From Escherichia phage ERS-1, in sequence record PP337211: a stretch of 64,000 bases of DNA; one strand, written 5' to 3'. Positions 1 through 64,000 of the stretch are shown piece after piece. Position 1 is the first letter of the stretch. Every line of letters starts with the position of its first letter. The notes beneath the pieces are model-generated. The model had not been told where the DNA came from. It was given only the letters and a program-made list of their open reading frames with translations, and searched no databases. Position numbers and translations under genes: made by a program.

Positions 1-49
1 TGTTATTGCTAAGGTTAACCTGGTAACTGGGACACAAGACTCCAGCACC
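1..49. repeat. Partial copy (3' half) of boundary repeat element E: inner-stem arm ATTGCTAAGGTTAA (5-18), 24-nt variable segment (19-42), outer-stem arm CAGCACC (43-49); cut by window start
   Basis: Matches the 3' half of the complete copy at 57,996-58,128 (same arm sequence, same spacing, same terminal CAGCACC). T4-like DNA starts immediately after pos 49. Confidence 0.6.
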
Positions 50-127
50 ATTCCTATAAATAGCAGACATTAGATATTTCTTTTCTTCGCCTTCACGAAT
101 ACGATACTTCTTACCGATTTTAAACAT
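50..127 (-). pseudogene. Truncated CDS: 26 N-terminal codons (MFKIGKKYRIREGEEKKYLMSAIYRNG) whose reading frame runs into the repeat at 1-49
   Basis: ATG at 125-127 on minus strand; no stop before the repeat or window edge; the body of the gene is absent. Confidence 0.3.
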
Positions 128-32905: not shown

Positions 32906-33109
32906 ATTATTTCTCTAATATAAAATAAAAATCATCATCTGTTAAATGATACCGATAGTTTAAAATTCTACACCATTAGATTTAAAAGCGGTATCATACG
33001 GATTTTCTGGATCAATATCAATGTCAAGAGCTAAAACTTCCCTGAGATACATTTTAAGTAAATAGGGAATAGCTTCAACTTCAGGTATTTCTTCCAAGAA
33101 TCCGGAGAG

Positions 33110-33667
33110 GTTAATCGTTAGCCTCATATAAAAAATCCAAACTAGGAGAATCGTCTACAACACTTTTCTTTCAGCCCCCGGTGTTCTATAGGTTGATTCT
33201 TCGTAATGCGTCATTTTATCGTAGATGTCTTGAATAAAAGTTTCATCTACTAACGCAACCATATCGTCGTCACGGCTGTCATAGACATTGTGAACGAAGT
33301 AACTATATTTCTTTGCAACTTCCTTACGTTCTTTTTTAATACGTTGGACGAATGCATTAAAACAAGCTTGAGTTATATACGCATGTGGGTTTTTATATTT
33401 CGTTTCATCAAAATTATGAAGCCCCTTAATAGAAGCTTCTATACCATCTGCAATCATTTCTTGTTTCCAAGATTGGGTGTATCCTGAAAAGTTGAAACGT
33501 TTAGATAAGCCTTCTGCAATAAGCATAATGGCTAATCCGATAGTATCATTCTGACGAACTACTTTATTTGGGTCTTTATTATTTGCTAATTCTGTTTTCC
33601 AATCAATAATAGCTTGTAAAAGCTCTTTATTGTTTACGTAATTATATTTAGGCTTAGTTTCTGACAT
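33110..33667 (-). CDS. 55: Late-transcription sigma factor gp55 (C-terminal frameshift)
   Basis: ORF 33155-33673 contains [31 protein letters not shown].. matching recalled T4 gp55; the last ~20 codons appear to continue in another frame. Confidence 0.75.
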
Positions 33668-36676: not shown

Positions 36677-36780
36677 CTTTTTTTTTTTTTTTAGGTGCTG
36701 TCGATTCTGTTTGTAGTCGTCTGTTTAACCTTAGCAATACTAACTGAACCAAGTACAAAACAGTCAATTGCTAAGGTTAA
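36677..36780 (+). repeat. Boundary repeat element E, copy A: T16 run, AGGTGCTGT, 23-nt segment, 14-bp inverted repeat with 28-nt loop; lacks the 3' CAGCACC arm
   Basis: Direct comparison with copies at 36,927-36,971, 57,689-57,776 and 57,996-58,128. Confidence 0.7.
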
Positions 36781-36926: not shown

Positions 36927-36971
36927 CAGGTGCTGTCGATTCCGTTTGTAGTCGTCTGTTTAACCTTAGCA
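36927..36971 (+). repeat. Repeat element E, copy B (5' half only): CAGGTGCTGT + CGATTCCGTTTGTAGTCGTCTG + TTTAACCTTAGCA; left terminus of high-GC block 1
   Basis: Differs by 1 nt from copy A over 32 nt; near-identical inverted copy at 57,689-57,720. Confidence 0.7.
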
Positions 36972-39900
36972 TATGTCTAATGTCGAAGCCACACACCACC
37001 GCCAGAGTTAAAGGATCGACTCCCATGGAACACCAGCACCTTCGGCATCAAGCTGAGCAAGATCTTCCCGTGGCTGGTTCAGGAAGGAGCTGCCGGGATC
37101 AATCGACTTCCCGTGGCGGACCTCCTCAACGCGCCCGGAAGGTGAACAGGCCTGCGCATGACCTTCGCCCAGCTCCGTCCAGGATGACCTGGCGGTGAAC
37201 GGTCGCCTTGGCGGGACGTTCAACCTGCTTCGCCGCCGGAAGGATGACGAAAGCGACGGGACCGCGGGCGCCGCCGCACGGGCGACTGTCCGTGAATGCC
37301 CGAACCTCCCTGGCCGGCTCGGCATGAGTTCGCCCTTCACGTGGTGGGGCCTTCCACCTCCCGGAGGAAGGCCGGGCGTCTGGGCGTCCGGACGATGTCA
37401 CCTGCCTGGAGCTGCGGCGGCGGCTCGTCACGCCTGCTCGGCGAAGGACCTGATTGGTGGGGCCTGGCTGTCTGGGTTGAAGCCCGGGACAGGTACTGTA
37501 CGAACACCGAGCATCCGAGGACCCTCCGGTGATGGTGGACATGGCGGGGATCAAGCGCAAGGACGCCAAAGGAAACTACCTGGGCCGTCCTACGGGATGG
37601 GCGGGGCGAAGATGTGCCTGGGCTCGGGCTCCCGACGATGATGGCCGTGCGCGGCCCCCGCTTCCGCTGTTCGACGCGGCACCTGCCCGGAGGGTCGGCG
37701 CCTGGTCGCGGAAGGGGCGCGGAGGTTCGAGGCCGCGGGGCCGGAGGGTCAGGCCCTCCTGGACACCCTCCACCCGGGTGCCCGTTCGCATCGGAGAAGC
37801 TGGCGAAGGCTTGCGAAGCCCGGGCGAAGGCCGTGGGCGGCGTCACATGACCTGAGCGGTCGCCGCTGCCGCTTCCCGAAGGAGGGGACGGGAACTACGA
37901 CTGGGACCCGGCGACCAACCGGCTGATCGGGCTCCTCCCGCGGACCGGGTCAAGATGGCGATGGTGGCCTGCGCGGAAGCCGGACTGGGGCGTCCCGGGG
38001 CCGGCGATGAGATCGCCTTCGGCTAGGCGAGGCGGAGGAGGCCGCGGAAGCTGCCTGGTTGCGGACGTGTACGCCGCCCCAACTCCCGTCAAGGTGGACG
38101 TGGAGATTGGGCAGGCTGGGGTCATCGCTTGGGCTGGACGGGAGCCGCCTTTGCGGTTCCGCTACGGGTGACGTGGGTGTCGGCTCACTCGTTTGCGGAT
38201 CGCTGCGGGTGTACCCGCTCGACCCCGCAGGAAGTCCGGGCGAACCCCTGGAGAACGATATGCGCCGTGGCAACGACAGCGTCCGTGGACCTCGAAGTGT
38301 TGGCGAGCGTGAGAAAGGGGGCCCTGGTCGACGGCGGCGGTGAGGAGGAAGTCTGGATGCCGGGTTGGTGTCCGCGCGGTCGAGAAGAAGGGCCTGCGGC
38401 CACCTGGACCGTCACCGAATGGATCGCCGGGTCAGAAGGGGCTGATATGAATGATCGCTGTGCGCTGGGAAGTTCTGGGCGGCGATGATCTGGGAGGCGG
38501 TCCTGGTCTGGCTCCTGGTAGGCGGTTGCCGGTGGACGCCTTCGAGTCCTTGACCTGGCCTCCTGCTGGGCGGCACTTCCTCGGAACGTTGCCCGGTTTC
38601 CGCTGAAGGAGGAGGTGAAATGAGCGAACGTCAAGACCGCCTGGGACCGCCGCGATGTTGGGCTGGCCGGTCGTCGCGGGCTGGAAGGGGTGATCAAGGT
38701 CGGAGCCGTCCTGGTCGGCCGGGCGGTGGCGCGGCTTCGACCGGGTTCAACGGCTTCCCGCCCGGTGCGATGACTCGCCGGAGCTGTACGCTGACCGCGG
38801 TGTACCTGCCGTCGGTGGCGGAGGCGTTGGCTCTTTAGGCTCGCCTGCGACGGCTTCGCTCTACATTCTTTCCCTGCTGTCCGAACTGTATGGAGGCCGC
38901 GGGGAAGGCGGGCGTGAAGCGGGTCGCCTTCCCGGTCGACTACGGGCTGCGATCCGGGGTGGGTTGCTGAGTGGAATTCGACGGTTGATGAGGCTTTGGA
39001 AGTCGCCCGCCGTTAGGGGTTGAAGCGAGGTGGGTAGATGTCTGAAGCCGGGCGCGGGACTCCCTCCGCCCCGTCATCCGGTCGCTGGACCCGGTGCGCG
39101 TGGAGAACCCCTTTCGCGCCCGGGACCCCGGATGTGAACTATGCCGGGCTGGATTGAATTGAAGTTCGCTGAACGCTGGCCGCCCTGGGCGGACCGCTTC
39201 CGAGTGGACCGACTCCACCTGCCCAGCACCTGGCTCACCCGTCGCCGGGTGCCGGGGCCGGGCCTTCCTCCTGCTGAAGGTCGGGAGACGGAGTGGTTGC
39301 TGATTCGATGGAGCGGTGGCCGCTGCGACGCCGGGCCGGGTTCCGCGAGAACGCCTGTATGAGGTCTGCGCTGCCGTTGGATGCCTTCCAGAAATGAGGA
39401 GATTTGTAAATGTCGCCGCGGTGAGGCGGGCGGAAGGTGAAAGCCCACCGCTACACCGCCGCTGGCAGGGTTGAACCAAATTGAGGCCGCGAAGGAGTAC
39501 GGGGTCCTTGCACCGCTACCGTGATGGGAAGCGGACCGCCGCCTGGACGATGAACCGTGCCTGTCCCGGCGAGGTCCGAGCCCGAGGTCTGCTTGCTGTT
39601 CCGCCGCCGCTCGGGCAAGACCTGCGCGAAATCGCCGCCGCTCTGGGCTGACTCGCCTCGGGTTGTCCAGATGGCAGGACGGAAAGCGCCGGTTGAGCGC
39701 CTTCGTGAATATTGGGGCTTTTGAGGGGGATCGGAAATGGCGGAACTGCCGAAGTGGAGACGAGGATGGTTGACTTCCTGAAGAAGCGGTGCCGGAGGGG
39801 CCGTGGGTCCTGACGGCCATCGTCCGGACGGGAAAACGGAGACGGTACCGTCTTGTTGCCCACTGCTTAAGGCCGCGGAGTGGATCGAGGGCATCAGGGC

Positions 39901-51900: not shown

Positions 51901-54601
51901 AGGTCAGCGGAGACGCCGCGGGCCTGATCGCCTGCCTGTTCGTGTCAACGCCCTCGCTGGAATACCCGCAGCGCCAGGACTACGTGGACCTGTCTACAAG
52001 CCGCGCGACTTCGCCTTCGACCGCCGCAGGCTGAGGAAATCACCGCTGCCTTCGACCTGATACCCTCGGCGCAGCCGACCGCCCCAACTTCCCGGCAAGG
52101 AGCAGATGACCGGTAGACCGCCCCCGGACCAAACCTCCTGCAGGAGACTTTCGTTGGTGTCGCCCCTGACGTGACCGCCCGCCGCGTCCGTCCTGGGCGA
52201 CTTCAGGTGCGCCTCGGCGACCGAGTCGATGCCGGCTTCCGTCCTTCGCCCCGGGCGGAAGTCGGACCCGGCGACCCTGAGCTGGAACCCGTTGGCCCGT
52301 TCACGCTGAAATGGCGACCCCGCAGGGCCTGCACATCCCGGCCGAGGTCCGGCTGGAACATCGCCTTGCCCGCCACTTCGACCGCCTGCTTACGATGGTC
52401 GGTGGACCCCCTCTGTAAGGTAGAAAAGGAGCCCGCGATGGCTGGGCGAGCCACCGCCGTTGGGAGAACCCTCCGTCACCTCCGCGACTGCGCGGAGCCG
52501 CGCACCCCCTGGGCGGATCCGGAAGCCCGCGCCCGGGCGTCCTCCTCCAACTCGCCGTGGAGGCGGCTGGAGGAGGTCGGGTGACGATCACCGCCGCGAG
52601 CTGGACGAAGCCCGAGCAACGCGGGAGGTGAGTGATGAGCGGACGCTACAAGGTCCTGGCCGGGTCCCAGTGCCCGGCCACCGCCGCTCGACTACACCGT
52701 GGTGGATGTCCGGAGCCTTTGCCCGCGGGCGCCTCGGGTGCCGTCGATGCGACTGCGAGACGTTTGGCGAGGAGGAAGCCCTGCGGTTGCCCGCGCCCGA
52801 ACGCGGCGATCGGCGAGTTGAAGTGTACCCTCGCCCGGGCCGCTCGCCTGTTCGAGGAGGCCCTGCCGAAGTCGTGCTGGGCGCCAGCGCCCTGGACGCC
52901 GGCGTGATCCGCTGCTTGGTCAGGTCCCGGCGAAGTCCGCGCGGCCCTGAAGGCTTGCGCCCTTGTGCGGAGGGGAAGTGCCCCGTACGGCCCCGAACCG
53001 CCCCTGGGCGAAGGAGGGCGGAGCATCACCCCCGGGCGCTGACGCCCTGATCCTGAGTTCGTGTCGACCTGGGCGGCTAGGGGTCAAGCGGCTGAAGGAC
53101 CGCCGGGCGAAGATCGCCGGCTGTTCGCCCCGGGACGGACGGAAGGCGACCGCCTGGCCCTGTACGTCGCCGGGCGGGCGACCCTCCCGCTTCGACGCGG
53201 CCCGCTGCGCCGGTACGCGCCCGCCGCCCGTTGGACCTCTGCCGCGTGACGACCTAGGTAACGGCTCCGCCCGCGTGGTGCCGAAGTCGTAACGAGACCG
53301 GAGAAGGAGAAGCGGCGAAGCGGGGAATCTACCGCGGCCCGATCCCTGCCCGATTCGGCAGACCTGCGCTGCTGCGCGAGGCGACCCGGCCATGCTCGTG
53401 GCGGTTCGATGACGGAGCCTGACCCGGAGCGGCGACCCGATCCCGGCGGAGAAGCCCGAAGGCCCGCCCGCGGACGCCCTGGGCTACGGCTCGCGCCTTC
53501 CCGGCGGAGGACTTCGAGGAGAACCGGACCTGCCCGACCTGCGAGGCGACCGGCTTTCGGCGGCTCGCGCCGGGTCCTGACCGCTGTACCTTCTGCGACG
53601 GGACGGCAAGGCGGGAACCCGCCGGAGGAGGACGGCGAGGCTGCCGGGGTGCCCCGCCCGACCGCCCGCGCGCGGTCGGTGACCTCCTCCGTGGGCATGA
53701 CCCGCGACGGCTACCGGCTCGCCGGGTGGTTGTCGAGTGCGAGGACGGCGCTGTGGCGAACTCCGCCAGGAACGAAGCCGGGACTGATCCTGGGTCCGGC
53801 TCCCGGTGATCCCGGGAGGTGAACGATGTCCCTGGCTGAGTTCGAGGACCGCGTGGCGGATCCCCTGCCTCATCGTGGTCACCACCGGGAGCCCTGACGT
53901 GCCCGCGAAGTGCTGCGGCCCGCCTGAAGATCGCTACCCGGCGGAAGGCGGATGCGGTGAATGGGAAGTCCGCGACCGCCGCGGACGCCCGCCCCCTGGC
54001 CTGGAGCGGGGTATGACGGAGGCGGAGCGCGAAGCGGTTGACCTGGCCGTGTTCGATCCGTGCGGAGGACCGGCGATGACCTGCGTGCGCGTCCCCGGGG
54101 GTCGCTTGCCGTCGCCCTCTTCCGGCTCCGCCTCGCGGACGGCTCCTGCGCGTCGGAGCCCTGCCACCTGCGGGCTGCCTCTTCCGCGACCGGCGGCTGG
54201 CGTCTTCACACGAGTGGTGGAGGACCCCTGCGATCTGCGCCGCCCTGGACTGGTCCTTCAACGAGGAAAACGGGCCGACCGCCCTCGCCGCGGGATGCCC
54301 CGCCGGGTGGTCCCGCGGTGCCGACTGGTCGAGTCGGAGGCCGAAGGCTGCGGAAAACCGGCGGGCTCCCCCTCCTTCTCCCTTCCACCGGGTGCGCTTG
54401 GGTTACGGGAGTGCGCTTGGGTTCGGCTCCAAAAGTATGAAGGGGTGCGTGGCGGGAAGTTGTAGCCGTCTGGGGTTCCTGCCTTGCGCTTAGGTTACTT
54501 GGGATTCTTACCTGAAACAAATTTGCCCAGGGTTGACCCGGCGGACCGGCCTGAGAATCCTTGTTGAGGCTTCCGGCTGTCCGAGGGCTTCCTGGGGCTA
54601 A

Positions 54602-54648
54602 GGTAAGTAAGTTAAGTAAGTTAAGTATCTATCTATCTATCTATCTAT
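54602..54648. repeat. Simple-sequence repeats: (GTAAGTTAA)-like units followed by (TATC)5
   Basis: Read directly: GTAAGTAAGTTAAGTAAGTTAAG then TATCTATCTATCTATCTATCTA, inside a lower-GC island (~54,470-54,700) within block 1. Confidence 0.8.
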
Positions 54649-55479
54649 AAAGGGCTGTTTTATATGGCCTTTTTGCCCGCTTGACTTTTTACTTTTTCGG
54701 ACGTGGAAGTGAAGCGCGACCCCTCGAACCTAAGCGGAGGACGCCGCGTGCCTGCTTGGGTCTGTTGCCCGTCGCTCCCGCGCCTCCCCCGCGGGCGAGC
54801 GCGACCCGCCCTTGGCGAACGCAGGCTTCGCCAGACTCGCGGCGAGGATGTCCTTGGGCGTGAGGCCGGGACGGATCGCCGCGTGATGCGCGATTGACGG
54901 GCGGTGCTGCCCAAGGGGGAGGTGATGTGCCCATTGAGAAACTGAAGCCGAAGCCGATGGTGCCCTTGCCCTTGGATGGAAGCAGTACCTGGAGTTGTTC
55001 CGCACGTCCCGACCTGGGTGGGTGGAAGTACCGTGCGCGGAGGCGTGGGCGTCTCCGGCTCCGCCGTTCCACTATGCCGTTGAAGAATGACCCGGAGTTT
55101 GCCCTGGCTCTGCAGGACGCCCGCCAAGCGTGGATTGATGAGATCCTGTTGCGCGGCCCTGAAGCGGGCGCGGGACGGCGCGGCAGCGCCCGATCGGTCG
55201 GGGAAGTTCAAGGACGAAATTATTGGATGAGCGGGTGTACTGTGATTCGCTGATGGCCTTGACGCTCCGCGCCCGCCGTGCGGAGTTCGGGAGGACGGGA
55301 GGACGTGGCCTGTATCACTGCCCTCGGCCCGGTGGGCGCCGATCGTCCCGGGCCCCGGCGTCGACCGGACGACTGGGAATTGTTTGGGACCTCGCCCGCG
55401 GGACCGTGGGCCGTCCGACCGGGAGGGCGATGTTCGCCTGGTCCCAAGCGGGCAGGCGGTTGCCATCGCCGCCCGCCCG

Positions 55480-57688: not shown

Positions 57689-57776
57689 CAGACGACTACA
57701 AACGGAATCTACAGCACCTGAGTATGTATTGCTAAGGTTAGAGGGAAACACGATAGAATCCAACAGCACCTAAAAA
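57689..57776 (-). repeat. Repeat element E copies D2 (57,689-57,720, right terminus of block 1, inverted relative to copy B) and D1 (57,721-57,776, 5' half plus inner-stem arm), both in reverse orientation
   Basis: Reverse complement reads TTTTAGGTGCTGT-TGGATTCTATCGTGTTTCCCTC-TAACCTTAGCAAT-ACATACT-CAGGTGCTGT-AGATTCCGTTTGTAGTCGTCTG. Confidence 0.7.
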
Positions 57777-57995
57777 GGTTCAACTTTTTACTAAATAATA
57801 AATGTTGTAGTATCTTCTTAAAACGAAAAATTTAATTTGCTTTAAAACCTTCCCAATTTTTTTTGCCTTTTTTTAACATACGTCAGAACATGGAAGAATG
57901 GTGGCCGTTTTTTACACTGTGAAGAAACAATTTTGAACTTTTAAATGACTTCCATTTATATTGTTTTAATTTCCTTTTTTCCCGTTTGTTGTTAA

Positions 57996-58128
57996 TTTTT
58001 TTTTTTAGGTGCTGTTCCGGATTTATCGTGTTTCCTGATTAACCTTAGCAATACGTAACTGAACGAAGTACATAAAAACACCAATTGCTAAGGTTAAAAG
58101 GTTACACAAACCCTGGACAAGCAGCACC
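57996..58128 (+). repeat. Repeat element E, complete copy C: T11, AGGTGCTGT, 23 nt, TTAACCTTAGCAAT, 31-nt loop, ATTGCTAAGGTTAA, 24 nt, CAGCACC; abuts high-GC block 2
   Basis: Nested inverted repeats (outer 7 bp GGTGCTG/CAGCACC; inner 14 bp) read directly; loop similar to copy A loop. Confidence 0.7.
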
Positions 58129-61100
58129 CTCCCTTTGCGGTGTTCTCCGGCTCCGCCTTGTCCTTTGAGAGCGGAGGGGTGTCGCTTGTTGATGCAGCGG
58201 GCGATGGCGAACATGGACCAGAGGTGCGGGTGGTCCGCGAGGGCTGACGGATGCTTCTCGTCCGGTCCTGGTCCCACCCTTCCGGTTGGCTCCTGGAAGA
58301 TGTTGGGTACTGCCTGTTCCAGACCGGGTCCGCGGTCGGGCCGGGGCTTCCCGGCCTTGCGGTCCGGTAGATGTCGCGCCGGGCCTTCAAGGCGGCGACG
58401 TCGTCGACGCGCGGGGTGGTCGGTGCTGGGTCCTGGTCGGGCCCTCCGATGACGGCCTTGATGTCCTTCAGGGCCGTCTCCCTGTGGATGTCGCGGACCG
58501 TCTCGCCGTCCGCCAGGGCCTCCCGCGGACCTGGGCGATGGCGCGGTGCTTGTTGGTCCTTCCCTGGTCCTCCTCGACGGGCTTCCCGCCGTCGCGCTCC
58601 TGGATGTGCTTTGGCTTCCAGCGGCGTGTCCTGAAGGCCGGGTCGCCGCCGTTCGCCTTCGACCGCCACCCTGCGTTGGTACCTGTAGATGGTGCTGATG
58701 GCCGCCCTCAAACCTTACCGCCTTCACGTCCGGGTCCCGCCCAACCAGCTCCGCGACGGCCTTGGCGGCGGCTTGGGTCTTGATCCGGTCTGGGCCGGCG
58801 GTGGTCGCTCCGGCGGCGGCGGTGTAGTCCCCGATGATGGCGATGCCGTCCGGGGCGTGTTGCCGGGATCGGCTTGTGGTCCGGGGACGATGACGTTGAT
58901 GACGCGGGCGGATCGCGGGCCAGGCTGCGCGGGGGTGTGCTCTGCCGGAGCCGTATGCCCTGCCCGTCGATGTACTTCGGTTGGTTTTCCAGTTTGGTTG
59001 AAAACGGCGGAGCCGGAGCCCCCGCCTGGGGTTGCTGTTGGACCCTGCGCGATCGGATGATCTTGCGCTCGCCGCCGTCCTCCTCCGGCGGGGCTGGTTT
59101 CCCGACCTCTGAGTCTGGGCGAGCGGCCTTCGCCGCCCCAGGTTCCGAACCGCGGGCTCGGCTCGTCGTCGTCCGCGCGGTGGAGACCTGGCCGGTGGGG
59201 GGCGGCTTCCCCTCACCTCCTGGAGGGCTGGCCCGTCGGTCCGGGTGAAGGTTCGGGACGCGCTGGCCGTGGCGGCCCCGCGGCGATCATTTCACGCCTT
59301 CCAAAGCCAGTGCCGGTTCGCCGGTTCCGGGCTTCCCGCGGCGGTCCAGGCGTGTCGTCGCGTAGGTCGTTGCCGCGCTCCGTCGCCGGTTCGGTACCTG
59401 CCGGCGGGCTTCGACCCGGCACGGCTCGCGATGGTCTTTCCGGGCTCCGGCCTGGTTCTCCGCGGGCTGTCGGCGAAGGCTTTGGTGCGCCCCGGGCTGA
59501 ACCGCTTTTGGAGGTGTTCGATCATTGCTGGAGCCCTGCTGTAGCCCGCTTCCCGAATTTTGCGATTGCGTGGTCGTTGCCGACCGCGGCCTGGCGCTCG
59601 AAGCTGTGGCGGATGTCGTCGTGGGTGACGATCCCCGGGATTACCGGATTGACCTGATGGAGGTGTACATGCCCGACGCGCGCTCGCGATTTCGTCGGGA
59701 TGGTCCTGAAGGCTGATGGCCCCGGAGGCTCGTGCCGTTGTGGTCGTTGCCGGTGTTCGGTGACTTCTGGGCGTAGCTGTAGGGGTTCCGCTTCGGAGGT
59801 CGATGGCCGGATGGGGTAGCAGACGGCCGGGAAGAAGACTGGGCCGGGAGTTGGCGAAGGCTTCCGCCCCCGCCTGGGTGTTATGGGGCGCTTTGAAACG
59901 GTGAAGGGGTCCGTGAAGCTGGAGAAGCAGCCCGCGGCGGAGGTCCGGACTTCGAGAGGCATTTTGCGGACCTGCTCGCCGTAGTTCACCGGGACGCTGA
60001 TGAGGCCGGTGCCGCGGTAGCCCCGGAACCCGCTGTCGACGTAGAAGGCGCAACCCACTGTAGCCCCATAAGGCTCCGTCAGGATCGCCTCGCTGCAGGG
60101 GCGGGCGCGGGAGCCTCGCTTGTCGTTGTGCTTGTCCTGGCACCTGCCCTGAAGGGGCTTGGCGTTCGGGATGCGGATGTGCGGGAGGTAGGTGACGACC
60201 CTTTGAAGCCGGTAGGCCCAGCCCTTCACCTCCTTCTTGTCGTCTCTCCTTCGCGTTGCGGACCGTCCCCCCTGCCTTGCCGGAACTTCGCGCGCTGGCG
60301 CCGGTCCTGCACCCTTCTCCCCCATCGGGCCCGGAACTCCCGTTGGTTCGGTCCGGCGGCGAAATACTTGTAAGCCTCCTGAGCGGCTTCGCCGGTGCCT
60401 TCCTGCCCTTGCCTGCGTGGTCCGGTCATTCTCCTTCAACTGTGAAAAAAGTCTTGAGCGCCTTACCCGGAAGAAGTAAGCGGCGTTAATCGGCCCCGGC
60501 TCGCCACGTTGTTTCCGGGAGGTCCCCTGGCCTTCGCTCCTCCGAATGCCGGCGACCGGCGAACTGCCGGAACCGCGCGGCGACCCTTCCGCGTCATATC
60601 CTCCAGGTTGTCCTTTTGGGACCCGAGGGAACAAATGCTCGGGGTTGACGCACAACGGTCGGTCGCAGCGATGAACTTACGTTATCGCCGTCGGGATGGA
60701 CCGTCGAACCTGGCCGAAGGATAGCCGATGAGTGCCGTCTTAGTCTCATGTTGGCGTGCTGCTTATCATTGACTGGGAGCCGTTGGTTGGTCCCGTCTCC
60801 GGTCTTGATAGTGGGCGTCGAAGTAGGTGAGCCGGTCCGTCGATTACCCCATGTTCGGAATGATGGGGCGTGGGATGGACGAAGCCCGTTGAGCGGTTGC
60901 TGCGCTTTAGCTTTTGGGTTGGTAACGGGTTGGGGGAACGGGGCGGAGGCGTCCCGGGCTGCGTCCGCGTACCCGTAGCCCTCGTCGTATTACCGGTCAC
61001 CCGGTTGCCGGGTGCCTGGCCGCGGCCTTCCCCATGTACTCCCGGGTGGCGTCCTGGCTCTGCAGTATCCTTGTGGAGGATGACGTTGTAGTTGCGGGCC

Positions 61101-64000
61101 CGCCCCCTCCAAGCCCTCTTCAGTGCCCGGCGGCGACCGTCCCCGAGCTGAGACTGATGACCGGGGTCCCGGAGTCCGGGAGGTGCGGGGCGGTGCGGAC
61201 GGCCTCCGCGGGCGTTCTCCGTGATCGACTCCGGGAGCTTCGGGTGTTCGGCTGTAGCTGTCGTGGGAGTTCTCCCGTGCTTCTTGGCCGGACGGGGATC
61301 GCGGAGCGGCCCGCCGGCATGTCCAGGTCCGCCCCGAGCTGGCGAGCGCGCCCGCCGCCGGACGCGCGGGGCGTCCGCGGCCCCGTCGCGCTTGAAGCGG
61401 GGCCAGTAGTCCACGGCCTGTTTCCCAGCTGCTGGCAGGCGACCGCCCGGCCCGCCTTCGAGCGGTACGTGTCCGGCTGCCGATGGTGGTTCTTGTGGTC
61501 TCGATATGGGCGAGGCCCCGCCAATCTCGCTGAAGGACGGCACCGGGAGCGGGTGCTCTCCCCGCTTCAGGATCGGACCCCGTTGAGCGGGCGTTTGACC
61601 GGGCGTCGTTGACGACGTTGCTGCCTGGCGTGGTCGAGGAAGGCCCGTGCGGCGGAGGGCGGCCTGCCCGGTTCGAGCCCGCCGTCGATTTCCCGGATGT
61701 TGTTCCGTGGGTAGTGGCCGTTCGACGGTGGGGATTTTCCATTTACACAGCACCGTTCTACCTCTGCATGTTCGGCGGGTGGTTGCCCGGGTGGGCGGGG
61801 CGAGGTCCGCGAACCGCTGGTTTGCAGTCCGCCACCCGGACGCTTGATCGCCTCGCGCTTGGGCTTCGCGTTCTCCGGGTACTGTGAGCCTCGCGCTGCT
61901 CCGCGTTGCGGCCTTCTCCGGGTCCTTGAAGGTTAAGGCGGCGTCGTGCCGAAGTCGGCCGCACTTCACCGGTTCGACCTGTCCGCGATCTTGAAGCCGA
62001 TCCGGTCGGACCGAAGCCGTCGTGCTCCTGGGCGCGGGCGGAGACGGTGCGGAAGGGCAGGCGCTCCTCCGTCGCCCGGGCTCTCCCGTGCCCCGCCTCC
62101 GGGCGGTCGCCGTAGCGGGCCTGGAGGGAGGTTGCGGAGTCACGGTATCGGCCTGTAGCGGCGGTGCTCGCGTCCCCGGGGGCCTGTGCTCCCCCGGCGG
62201 GCGTCTCCTCCTCGTCGCGGGCCGCGACCTTCCCGGTGCGGCAACTCCTCGCCCTCCTCCACCAGGAAGGAGGCCACCCGGCGTGGTAGCTCCAGAATAA
62301 CCGAGGAGCCCGGGAGCTGCGGCACGGAGAAGTCCCCCGCCTCCTCCGCCCGAACCAGGGCCGTGTACACGGGTCCAGATCGCCGGTGGTGATCAGGTGT
62401 CGGCCGGGGTCGTCTCGATGTCCGGTCGCGGGGCAAGTTCTGCTCGGCTTTTTCTGGGTATGCGTGACTGATTTTCCCGGCTCAGGTCTTTGCGATGTCC
62501 GGTTCAGAGAATTGGCGACGAAGGAAGGCTCCGGCGGGACTTTTCGTCACGTGATACGGGAATGGACTTGTCTGGCGCCGCCGTCGCCGTCCTCCGTGAT
62601 CCCTGGTGAACCCGGCAGGAGCTTGAAGGGCTCCGTTCTGTATCCCCGCTCCGCCGGGCACCTGCCCGGCGGGGGTGCGGTGTGCGCTCCGAGGCTCCCG
62701 TTACCCTTGCCCTTGTCGGCCTGGCGGGTCTGGCGGGCGTCTGCCTTCGGCGGACTTTGCGGCTCGTGGGCCGGGATCGCGTGGCCTTCCGGGACCTCCG
62801 ACGTGGAACCGCTCGTGCCGTCCGCGTCGAAGGCGGAGCGGACCCCGCAGCCCTTTGGTCGCTTGTCCTGCTGAAGCCGGAGTGGGCGGTGGCTTCGGTC
62901 CTGGGCTTGTTGCTGCCCTTGGGCTTCGACCTGTTCGGCCGGTCCTCCTGTTTGGGCGGGACCCCCTACGTCGGGAGACGGCCGCTCCGAGCCCTCGCGG
63001 CGGGGGATCGGGGCGTGGCCCGGGCGGCAGGTTGGCGCCGCGCGGGCGCGGGCCTTCCTCCTCCGCGGACTTCGGAGCCTTCTGGGCCTTCGGAGGCGAC
63101 GGGCGGGGGTTGCGGTTTGTTTGCGGTTTCGACCTTCTGGGTTCGGCCTGCTGCTGCTCGGCACTTCCGGGCGCGCTTCGGCGGCGCCAGGCTTCTGTGT
63201 GGGGGTATGGCGGTGGTCTTGTCGGCAAGCGGTGGACGTTCGGGACGGACTTGCCGTTGCGGAAGGTGCCGATGACTTCGTCGGGACCTGCTCGACCGGG
63301 CCGGGCTGGACCTCGCTGGGAGGCTTCGGTGTAGGCGACGTTGTTGAAGTTGATGGTGTTCATGGTAGGCTCCTTCTGGGGTTGAGGTGCGATCTTGTTC
63401 GACCGTGAGAGAAATCTTAACCCTGCCCCCGAAGAAGTAAAGTGGTTTGACTAAACTTTTTCAGTTTCCCGTCCGAAGGCCAGGTGCCCGTTGGACGGCG
63501 GAGGGCGAACCGTTGGCGCCTCTTCCCAGAAGGCCCGGGCGGCGTCTCGTGCCCTGTTCTCCTGTACCAATGGTTGCGCCCCGAGGTGTGCGGGAACCCA
63601 GCGACCTCGAAGCCCCAGCGATGTTGGGTTGCACTGGTGGAAGTCCAGGTGCTGGGCCGGGTAGCCGAAAGCCTCTGCGACGTTCCGCCCAACGAGGATG
63701 ACGTGCCGACCGCCCAACAAGGGCTTCCCTCGCGGCTGCGGGCCCCGCGTCCCGGGCGGGCCGCTGTCGTCCCGCTTCCAGCGCCCCGGGAAGGTGTGGA
63801 GCAGGTGGTGCGGTCGAAGGTCTTGAGGTAGTCCTTGGGCGATAGGCCTGCCTGCTCGCCCGACGCCCTCCCGCGGAGGACCGCGGAGGGGAGCCAGGGG
63901 CCGGTCCGGGTCCGCGTTAGGTCCTGGCGCTGGCCGATCTGGGCTTGTTCGTTCTTTCGGGCACATTTCTCTGGGTGACGTTCTGTTTGAGGTCCGCTCC
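58129..64000 (-). other. High-GC block 2 (at least 5.9 kb, continues past window end): frame-drifting protein-like coding signal on the minus strand
   Basis: Minus-strand translations contain protein-like stretches (e.g. ..PDGIAIIGDYTAAAGATTAGPDRIKTQAAAKAVAELVGRDPDVKAVRFEGG.., ..AILTEPYGATVGCAFYVDSGFRGYRGTGLISVPVNYGEQV..); plus-strand ORFs are low-complexity. Confidence 0.5.
58440..59000 (-). CDS. Candidate protein-coding segment in block 2, frame-disrupted; function unassigned
   Basis: Protein-like segments in two minus-strand frames (..EALADGETVRDIHRETALKDIKAVIGGPDQDPAPTTPRVDDVAALKARRDIY.. and ..DGIAIIGDYTAAAGATTAGPDRIKTQAAAKAVAELVG..); no catalytic motif recognised; boundaries arbitrary. 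Confidence 0.2.

Follow-up and report, generated by a model that had tools for sequence, protein, structure and literature searches.

The sequence record PP337211 (Escherichia phage ERS-1) was analyzed over a stretch of 64,000 nucleotides (nt), referred to here as the window, which contains a short island of lower guanine-plus-cytosine content (GC) and simple repeats upstream of the terminase gene terS. The island lies inside a noncoding gap of ~700 bp in the order last small accessory open reading frame (ORF), gap, terS, terL, and portal gene. It is collinear with the corresponding regions of PaTs-2, M6, and LKO4, which are Yuavirus siphoviruses of Pseudomonas, and is located ~300 nt upstream of the terS start. 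The following parts were recognized in this region, where M1 denotes a recurrent motif and the module is the larger conserved unit described below.

54392..54426, plus strand: two direct copies of GTGCGCTTGGGTT (M1a and M1b)
54486..54518, plus strand: M1c, GCGCTTAGGTTACTTGGGATTCTTACCTG, aligned with a trapped sigma70 promoter of phage YuA
54519..54599, plus strand: GC-rich segment of ~80 nt; contains a conserved box, AATTCGCCCGAYAAATCG, with some miscalls in the window (from the module alignment)
54600..54625, plus strand: invariant core AAGGTAAGTAAGTTAAGTAAGTTAAG, three 9-nt direct repeats AAGKTAAGT (from Tandem Repeats Finder and comparison)
54626..54645, plus strand: (TATC)5, a 20-nt low-complexity AT-rich spacer (from Tandem Repeats Finder)
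54646..54651, plus strand: TATAAA, a -10-like hexamer; TATAAA or TATATA is present in all module types
54649..54673, plus strand: imperfect hairpin AAAGGGCTGT-TTTAT-ATGGCCTTTT (from the minimum free energy fold)
54680..54718, plus strand: CTTGACTTTTTACTTTTTCGG followed by GAAGTGAAGCGCG, a small hairpin; ACTTYTTC and GAAGT are invariant in the module alignment
54726..54740, plus strand: inverted M1, GAACCTAAGCGGAGG (reverse complement, CCTCCGCTTAGGTTC); AAGCG is invariant in all modules
54810..54844, plus strand: homolog of the terS promoter P014 of YuA, TTGGCT-N17-TATACT (from alignment and an LKO4 consensus match)
54925..54927, plus strand: terS start codon (from alignment to the annotated terS of PaTs-2 and M6)

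Tandem Repeats Finder, which the original prediction had proposed to run over the whole sequence, called both repeat arrays: a period-9 array, TAAGTTAAG x3.2, at 54599-54627 (95% matches; score, 51) and a perfect TATC x5.8 array at 54626-54648 (score, 46), the latter being called as far as 54648 because the TAT of TATAAA overlaps it. The repeats quoted in that prediction, GTAAGTAAGTTAAGTAAGTTAAG and (TATC)5, were both found letter for letter. Measured in 100-nt windows, GC was 0.32 to 0.43 at 54550-54699 versus 0.70 to 0.77 on either side, with a shoulder of 0.57 to 0.59 starting at 54400, and the 59-nt core at 54599-54657 had a GC of 29%. The claim of a lower-GC island with simple repeats in high-GC DNA was thereby confirmed. 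Within the high-GC 27 kb of the window, the arrays of the island were the sole arrays with a unit of ≤4 nt called by Tandem Repeats Finder; the chance expectation of a perfect 23-nt period-4 tract in 27 kb is, by rough estimate, ~1e-6. In the complete 61.8-kb genome of LKO4, the only microsatellites with a unit of ≤4 nt were those of the island and its paralog, and genome-wide these two also contained the lowest-GC and the second-lowest-GC 100 nt, respectively.

The island is evidently native Yuavirus sequence, as judged from its matches. Positions 54594-54760 differ from PaTs-2 by a single nucleotide, at a position that is polymorphic among the relatives and at which the window has the M6 base, and the island was present in 54 phage records with 88 to 98% identity over 201 nt. 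An origin as noise of the Nanopore basecaller, as leftover adapter sequence, or as synthetic or eukaryotic DNA would be conceivable in view of the makeup of the window, which consists of raw Nanopore reads joined by adapters (see below), since basecallers can emit low-complexity runs, and unrelated metagenome contigs carry long (GTAA)n tracts. However, these 167 nt match M6, YuA, LKO4, PaTs-2, and ~50 other independently sequenced genomes, and collinearity of the read with the phage extends to both sides of the island. As the sequence recurs in >50 independently sequenced phages, neither chance nor a basecalling artifact accounts for it; basecaller noise and an adapter remnant were ruled out by the identity to the reference genomes, and the probability of an artifact or of foreign DNA of any kind is negligible. 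Some records annotate ORFs of 37 to 63 codons in the island region. A small conserved ORF was considered and rejected: the frame from GTGGAAGTG ends differently and shifts after ~20 codons among M6, YuA, LKO4, and PaTs-2.

The island proved to be one of a pair. In LKO4, a second, paralogous module (copy B) precedes the gene of the replicative DNA helicase, at ~400-840, and Bordetella phages of the genus Vojvodinavirus have the module at the same two positions, upstream of terS (copy A) and upstream of the helicase gene. Twice per genome, Yuavirus and Vojvodinavirus phages thus contain a conserved noncoding module of ~450 bp, the anatomy of which was derived from an alignment of ten diverse modules. 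The 5′ part consists of M1 motifs (GCGCTTAGGTTACTT...), the box TTCGCCCGAYAAATCG, a variable GC-rich stretch, and the invariant AGGTAAGTAAGTTAAGTAAGTTAAG; the 3′ part consists of the low-complexity spacer, TATAAA or TATATA, a hairpin, ACTTYTTC...GAAGT, an inverted M1 (YYAAGCG), and the operon promoter. The GCGCTTRGGNTNC motif is nearly confined in LKO4 to the two paralogous intergenic modules. Positions 54600-54651 of the window match the module signature exactly, with the GGTAAGTAAGTTAAGTAAGTTAAG core, an AT-only spacer of 19 to 20 nt, and TATAAA. Scanning of IMG/VR, JGI metagenomes, and GTDB genomes with the core gave ~57 phage-type modules, together with a few of the unrelated (GTAA)n tracts mentioned above. 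The 24- to 26-nt (AAGKTAAGT)3 core was invariant in these ~57 natural copies and at both genomic positions, whereas the flanks diverge. Mimicry of a host sequence was rejected: among 185,579 species genomes of bacteria and archaea, the only occurrences of the core were on phage contigs that had been binned into metagenome-assembled genomes (MAGs). Such contigs include DYKZ01000001.1 (111.8 kb) and DYKZ01000002.1 (81.4 kb) of an “Anaerolinea thermophila” MAG, which hold Yuavirus sequence including the helicase-upstream module; each is probably a misbinned phage contig or concatemer.

The spacer between the core and the hexamer was of three kinds: (TATC)5 in ~27 copies, (AAG)5AA in ~23 copies, and (TAA)6 or (AAT)6 in ~5 copies. 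These kinds were freely mixed between A-type and B-type flanks, and the distance from the core to TATAAA was 19 to 20 nt in 55 of the 57 modules. The number of units was the same in all of the ~27 (TATC) copies, and no copy was off by one unit; a single loss of an AAG was offset by gained TA units, which brought the distance back to 20 nt. The tract was also equal in length in the Pseudomonas and the Bordetella phages. From the aligned copies, the microsatellite appears to be a length-locked spacer of about two helical turns, the sequence of which is free. These results bear on the suggestion that the island is a slippage-prone switch, i.e., a contingency locus in which the microsatellite would slip in length and thereby switch the downstream operon. 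A simple repeat between two conserved promoter-like elements is indeed what is present here, and a repeat placed between promoter elements is the classic layout of phase-variable promoters. The comparison of repeat copy numbers across isolates, which the original prediction had recommended, revealed no polymorphism among the ~57 modules, however, and with a constant unit number, a constant spacing in two genera, and compensation of the sole unit loss, a contingency locus is highly improbable. As to whether comparable simple repeats are common throughout the relatives, they were present in every related genome, but only at the two fixed positions.

Published transcript maps of YuA assign a transcription start site (TSS) to copy B. 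The promoter P002 has its TSS at position 612 on the minus strand, as determined by cappable-seq on the Oxford Nanopore Technologies (ONT) platform (ONT-cappable-seq) (PMC10914365; bioRxiv 10.1101/2023.10.13.562163 supplement). The AAG tract and nonamer core of copy B, in reverse complement, make up the 50-nt region upstream of P002, and the reverse complement of the core is located at -8 to -38 of the TSS. The antisense units of P002 run from 612 to 411 and from 612 to 60, P003 (814, plus strand) is the helicase promoter, and P014 (33417, plus strand) is the terS promoter (bioRxiv 10.1101/2023.10.13.562163 supplement). The mapped operon promoters, P014 and P003, are located 170 to 230 nt downstream. 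Copy B also contains a long imperfect hairpin, GCGCTTGGG...CCCAAGCGC (LKO4, 400-480; YuA, 395-471), at which the YuA transcript ends T002, T003, and T004 have been mapped on both strands; this hairpin looks like a bidirectional terminator made from the M1 motif.

Copy A is likewise surrounded by transcription signals. The GenBank record of YuA annotates a trapped promoter at 33014-33160, just upstream of the repeats, with “medium activity (1000 MU)” and the hexamers TTAGGT-N17-TGAAAT. The homologous promoter within M1c of the window consists of the -35 hexamer TTAGGT (54490-54495), a 17-nt spacer, and the -10 hexamer TGAAAC (54513-54518; TGAAAT in YuA). In the LKO4 record, a promoter is predicted near terS and two terminators are predicted directly behind (TATC)n, the hairpin at 54649-54673 being annotated as a predicted terminator. 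In its minimum free energy fold, this hairpin forms a stem of 10 pairs, three of them G-U, and the T run is located within the stem; a consensus terminator scan called no intrinsic terminator in the island, this hairpin included. The 5′ arm of the small hairpin at 54680-54718 resembles the TTTACTTCTTCGG box of the YuA “phage promoters” (compare the regions upstream of P010, P012, and P013). Both hexamer regions of the P014 homolog are corrupted by miscalls in the window, and terS is frameshifted there by read errors. The suggestion that the island marks an intergenic regulatory region was well founded: it is located in a noncoding gap before terS, beside the trapped promoter of YuA, and upstream of the mapped terS promoter.

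With moderate confidence, we favor the interpretation that the island is a transcription-control element of the promoter or insulator type. The module heads both main operons, for packaging/late functions (terS) and replication (helicase), the island sits amid mapped and trapped promoters, and its paralog coincides with a mapped antisense TSS; furthermore, the fixed spacing of about two turns between an invariant array and TATAAA fits the geometry of a promoter and an activator site. In such an element, the array, spacer, and TATAAA would act together as a promoter-type unit on which RNA polymerase would assemble, probably with the aid of a phage factor on the nonamer array. The paralog would fire leftward to give the antisense transcript of P002, which would oppose read-through from the preceding operon and might thereby insulate the next operon, and copy A may work in the same way. 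A short rightward RNA starting at TATAAA would also be possible. The length of the spacer and its easy melting would matter, and its sequence would be free to vary.

Several points weigh against this interpretation. The published YuA table contains no TSS between 31134 and 33417 and no transcription termination site (TTS) between 31609 and 33511, both of which intervals span copy A, and no YuA TSS was mapped downstream of the copy-A TATAAA. The putative -10-like hexamer of P002 is not kept at copy A, where TTAACC, TTAAAC, and TTAGCC are found. A sigma70 consensus scan of both strands found no site within the island, the only hits being TTGGCT-N17-TATACT near terS and one minus-strand site further upstream. 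P002 itself could be an alignment-clipping artifact at a low-complexity tract. In addition, perfect conservation of 24 to 26 nt across two genera exceeds that of usual promoters and fits a multisite protein-binding array, such as origin iterons, equally well. A related view, possible although doubtful, is that the twin islands are an undescribed phage control element in which a phage factor on (AAGKTAAGT)3 would act across the length-locked spacer on TATAAA and launch divergent or antisense transcription or replication.

The degree of conservation leads to the unlikely alternative of a replication origin, in which the nonamers would be iterons for a phage initiator (e.g., the primase-helicase), the AT microsatellite would be the DNA-unwinding element (DUE), and the upstream promoter would provide transcriptional activation as at the primary origin of T7. 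Three 9-nt direct repeats that precede an AT-only tract, at the site of the lowest GC in the genome, resemble iteron-plus-DUE origins and the T7 origin, as do the promoter ~100 nt upstream and the position of one copy directly upstream of the helicase/replication module; the invariance of the repeats across genera would also be explained. However, the cumulative GC and AT skews of LKO4 had no turning point at either copy, although skew is a weak test of an origin here because all genes are co-oriented. Moreover, it would be unusual for a genome to have two equivalent origins and for one of these to be at terS, and a fixed distance to a conserved TATAAA is not usual in origins.

The proximity of the array to terS (~300 nt) invites comparison with packaging sites. 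A pac site, at which the small terminase would bind the array to start headful packaging, in the manner of the lambda cosB R sites or SPP1 pacL, would explain direct repeats beside potentially bendable AT-rich DNA, and several deposited records start or end near the array. Circular permutation and headful packaging are reported for Yuaviruses (PMC11946847), which is in line with such a site. A single site would be expected, however, whereas an equally conserved second copy is located upstream of the helicase gene, ~26 to 35 kb away, and the Bordetella phages have identical cores at both sites. A pac site is thus quite improbable.

An element acting at the RNA level was also considered, in which M1 would pair with the nonamer core in read-through transcripts (processing or attenuation), or a short RNA starting at TATAAA or A-rich repeats would bind a host RNA-binding protein such as Hfq. 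RNAalifold predicted a 12-pair helix between M1 and the core in 12 of 12 sequences, its G-U pairs working on the plus strand only, and conserved hairpins follow downstream. Hfq binding follows an A-R-N rule, which (AAG)n and (TAA)n fit but (TATC)5 does not. Both arms of the M1:core helix are invariant, however, so that there was no covariation (RNAalifold covariation term, -0.55), and a manual comparison with phage ZC01 gave no double compensatory change. The fold energies were no better than those of shuffled sequences (z = +0.58 for the plus strand and +0.16 for the minus strand), which gives no sign of a stable RNA structure, and a covariance-model search of the whole window against Rfam 15 gave 0 matches at the gathering score. 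The lack of a mapped TSS or TTS in copy A of YuA also counts against such an element, with the proviso that the cappable-seq pipeline misses RNAs of less than ~80 nt (PMC10914365). Overall, we regard an RNA-level function as rather unlikely, and the transcription-control element remains the favored interpretation.

The window itself is not one genome: it consists of raw reads of two unrelated phages that were left untrimmed after a multiplexed run and are joined in a chain, as is evident from five ONT native-barcode structures, AGGTGCTG-N24-TTAACCTTAGCAAT (chance expectation, 0), and a complete Nanopore adapter within it.

5-50, minus strand: native-barcode structure
36693-36738, plus strand: native-barcode structure
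36928-36973, plus strand: native-barcode structure
58007-58052, plus strand: native-barcode structure
58084-58129, minus strand: native-barcode structure
58047-58072, minus strand: complete top strand of the Nanopore adapter

We take the five barcodes to be, in window order, BC03, BC02, BC02, BC04, and BC05 of the ONT list. The sequence of the adapter can be found in ONT-related papers. The inserts between these structures were as follows.

About 51-36677: T4-like read
Between the first T4-like read and the first Yuavirus read: fragment of ~130 nt
37042-57688: Yuavirus read
After the first Yuavirus read: barcode without insert
57770-58005: T4-like fragment of ~230 nt
58188-64000: second Yuavirus read

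The GC of the window shifts from 34% to 68% near 37000. The low-GC block (1-36677) is a Tequatrovirus, with ~95.7% identity to the Escherichia phages BYEP02, vB_Eco_BGP, and slur03 and with residual differences that peak at CG dinucleotides (13 to 16%). The high-GC part has ~80% identity to M6, YuA, LKO4, PaTs-2, and other Yuaviruses; positions 37042-57688 are collinear with LKO4 18435-38913, and positions 58188-64000 match LKO4 13845-7752 on the opposite strand. T runs (15 at 36678-36692 and ~11 at 57997-58006) separate the T4-like inserts from the barcode flank AGGTGCTG; such runs are not expected from a native-barcoding ligation library. The suggested nonprokaryotic or artificial origin of the DNA therefore fails for the island, which is native to Yuavirus, and is, by accident, only partly true of the window, in which raw reads of two phages are joined.

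The low identity of the high-GC part reflects read errors. True evolutionary divergence of this block was rejected on the basis of terL: compared with PaTs-2, the mismatches of the window were level over the codon positions (0.18/0.15/0.14) and were accompanied by 88 deletions and 17 insertions, whereas the differences of LKO4 and M6 from PaTs-2 were nearly all in third codon positions and included no indels. The Yuavirus reads have ~17% errors, which depend on the sequence context: in window orientation, A was miscalled or deleted after C in 71 to 75% of cases versus 9 to 10% after G in both reads. This CA-context error was seen whichever phage strand was read and was absent from the T4-like read of the same run (6%). 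Because the adapter top strand is complete on the minus strand, the sequenced strand was most likely the minus strand, in which case the miscalled base would be the T in 5′-TG-3′. The thymidine of M6 is hypermodified to 5-(2-aminoethyl)uridine (5-NedU) (PMC5889632; PMC8989533; PMC12191111), and the TpG-context miscalls fit a hypermodified thymidine as reported for M6. If the minus strand was sequenced, the pattern suggests that the 5-NedU hypermodification of M6-type phages is TpG specific; no statement of this specificity was found in the literature looked at. In LKO4, ~37% of T residues precede G. An AT skew of about -0.3 at 58000-64000 was recognized as a read artifact (the real LKO4 plus strand has +0.1), because lost A calls in the CA context push both reads toward T.

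The accuracy of the island within such reads has a simple explanation. The error-free 167 nt at 54594-54760 contain no CA on the plus strand, compared with ~7.6 expected (P of ~1e-4 by shuffling), and nine TG on the plus strand; the island was read without error because, with no CA on the plus strand, the sequenced strand has no putative modification sites there. This CA/TG asymmetry was absent from the paralogous copy B and from the Bordetella phage copy and may be due to chance. The core and AT spacer contain neither TpG nor CpA. We do not claim that the TG/CA-free core and spacer are functional, as their probability by chance is ~0.1 to 0.25 given the repeat structure. In an undescribed control element of the kind outlined above, itself a doubtful proposition, the AT core would stay free of thymidine hypermodification.

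These results have several consequences. The odd tract is native DNA in >50 public phage genomes, and handling it as foreign, eukaryotic, or synthetic would be a mistake. Work on Pseudomonas phage therapy makes use of Yuaviruses, the twin noncoding element of which is unusually conserved, and in phage engineering both islands are likely essential cis elements that are better left intact. The microsatellite is a clear natural case in which the length of a repeat is under selection and its sequence is not. In addition, the pattern of read errors offers an inexpensive and testable clue to the sequence specificity of 5-NedU hypermodification.

Among known sequences, the closest are the terS-upstream regions of the Yuaviruses M6 (NC_007809), YuA (NC_010116), LKO4 (NC_041934), and PaTs-2 (MH791403), which have the same sequence in the same synteny; the island is no different in them, and the flanks in the window differ through read errors only. 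These records annotate only parts of the gap, and no description of the repeat core itself was found; nor was an earlier description found of the module as a pair, of the nonamer array and its invariance, or of a microsatellite that is exchangeable but length-locked, although the sequence has been public for years. The helicase-upstream paralog with P002 (Putzeys et al. 2024, PMC10914365) shares the identical core, block order, TATAAA distance, and M1 motifs; it differs in having (AAG)5AA instead of (TATC)5 as the spacer, in its GC-rich hairpin, and in that the antisense TSS was mapped there and not at the terS copy.

A more distant counterpart is present in the Abidjanvirus ZC01 (NC_052965), in which a 935-bp gap upstream of terS contains an AT-richer, low-complexity patch with two arrays of 9-nt period, ACTTGAGAT x2.8 and CTAGAGTAA x2.8. 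The repeat sequences are different and there is no perfect microsatellite, so that the likeness is architectural and not alignable. An analogous island with different repeats of the same period suggests coevolution with a phage-encoded binder.

Three classes of known systems share parts of this layout. In phase-variable promoters, such as those with the Haemophilus hif (TA)n and the Neisseria porA/opc homopolymers, a simple repeat is located between promoter elements; as in the island, a microsatellite separates promoter-like elements and by its length would determine their distance and helical phase, but the length of the island tract is fixed in natural copies and only the repeat unit varies. 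Iteron origins with an AT-rich DUE, such as lambda ori and the promoter-linked primary origin of T7, likewise have direct repeats by an AT-rich tract. In the island, three such repeats adjoin the tract of highest AT content in the genome behind a promoter, and copy B lies by the replication genes; the island differs in its two copies per genome, its units of only 9 nt, the absence of a skew signal, and the absence of a known initiator. Activator-dependent phage promoters that lack a -35 element include the Mor- and C-dependent promoters of Mu and the MotA-dependent and late promoters of T4. The island differs from these in lacking a mapped rightward TSS and a known activator, but has in common with them a -10-like TATAAA without a -35 element and a repeated element at the position of an activator, the array being at about -33 to -58 if a TSS follows TATAAA, as the putative geometry would have it. 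The module is a variant of ordinary phage regulatory DNA and not a new kind of system.

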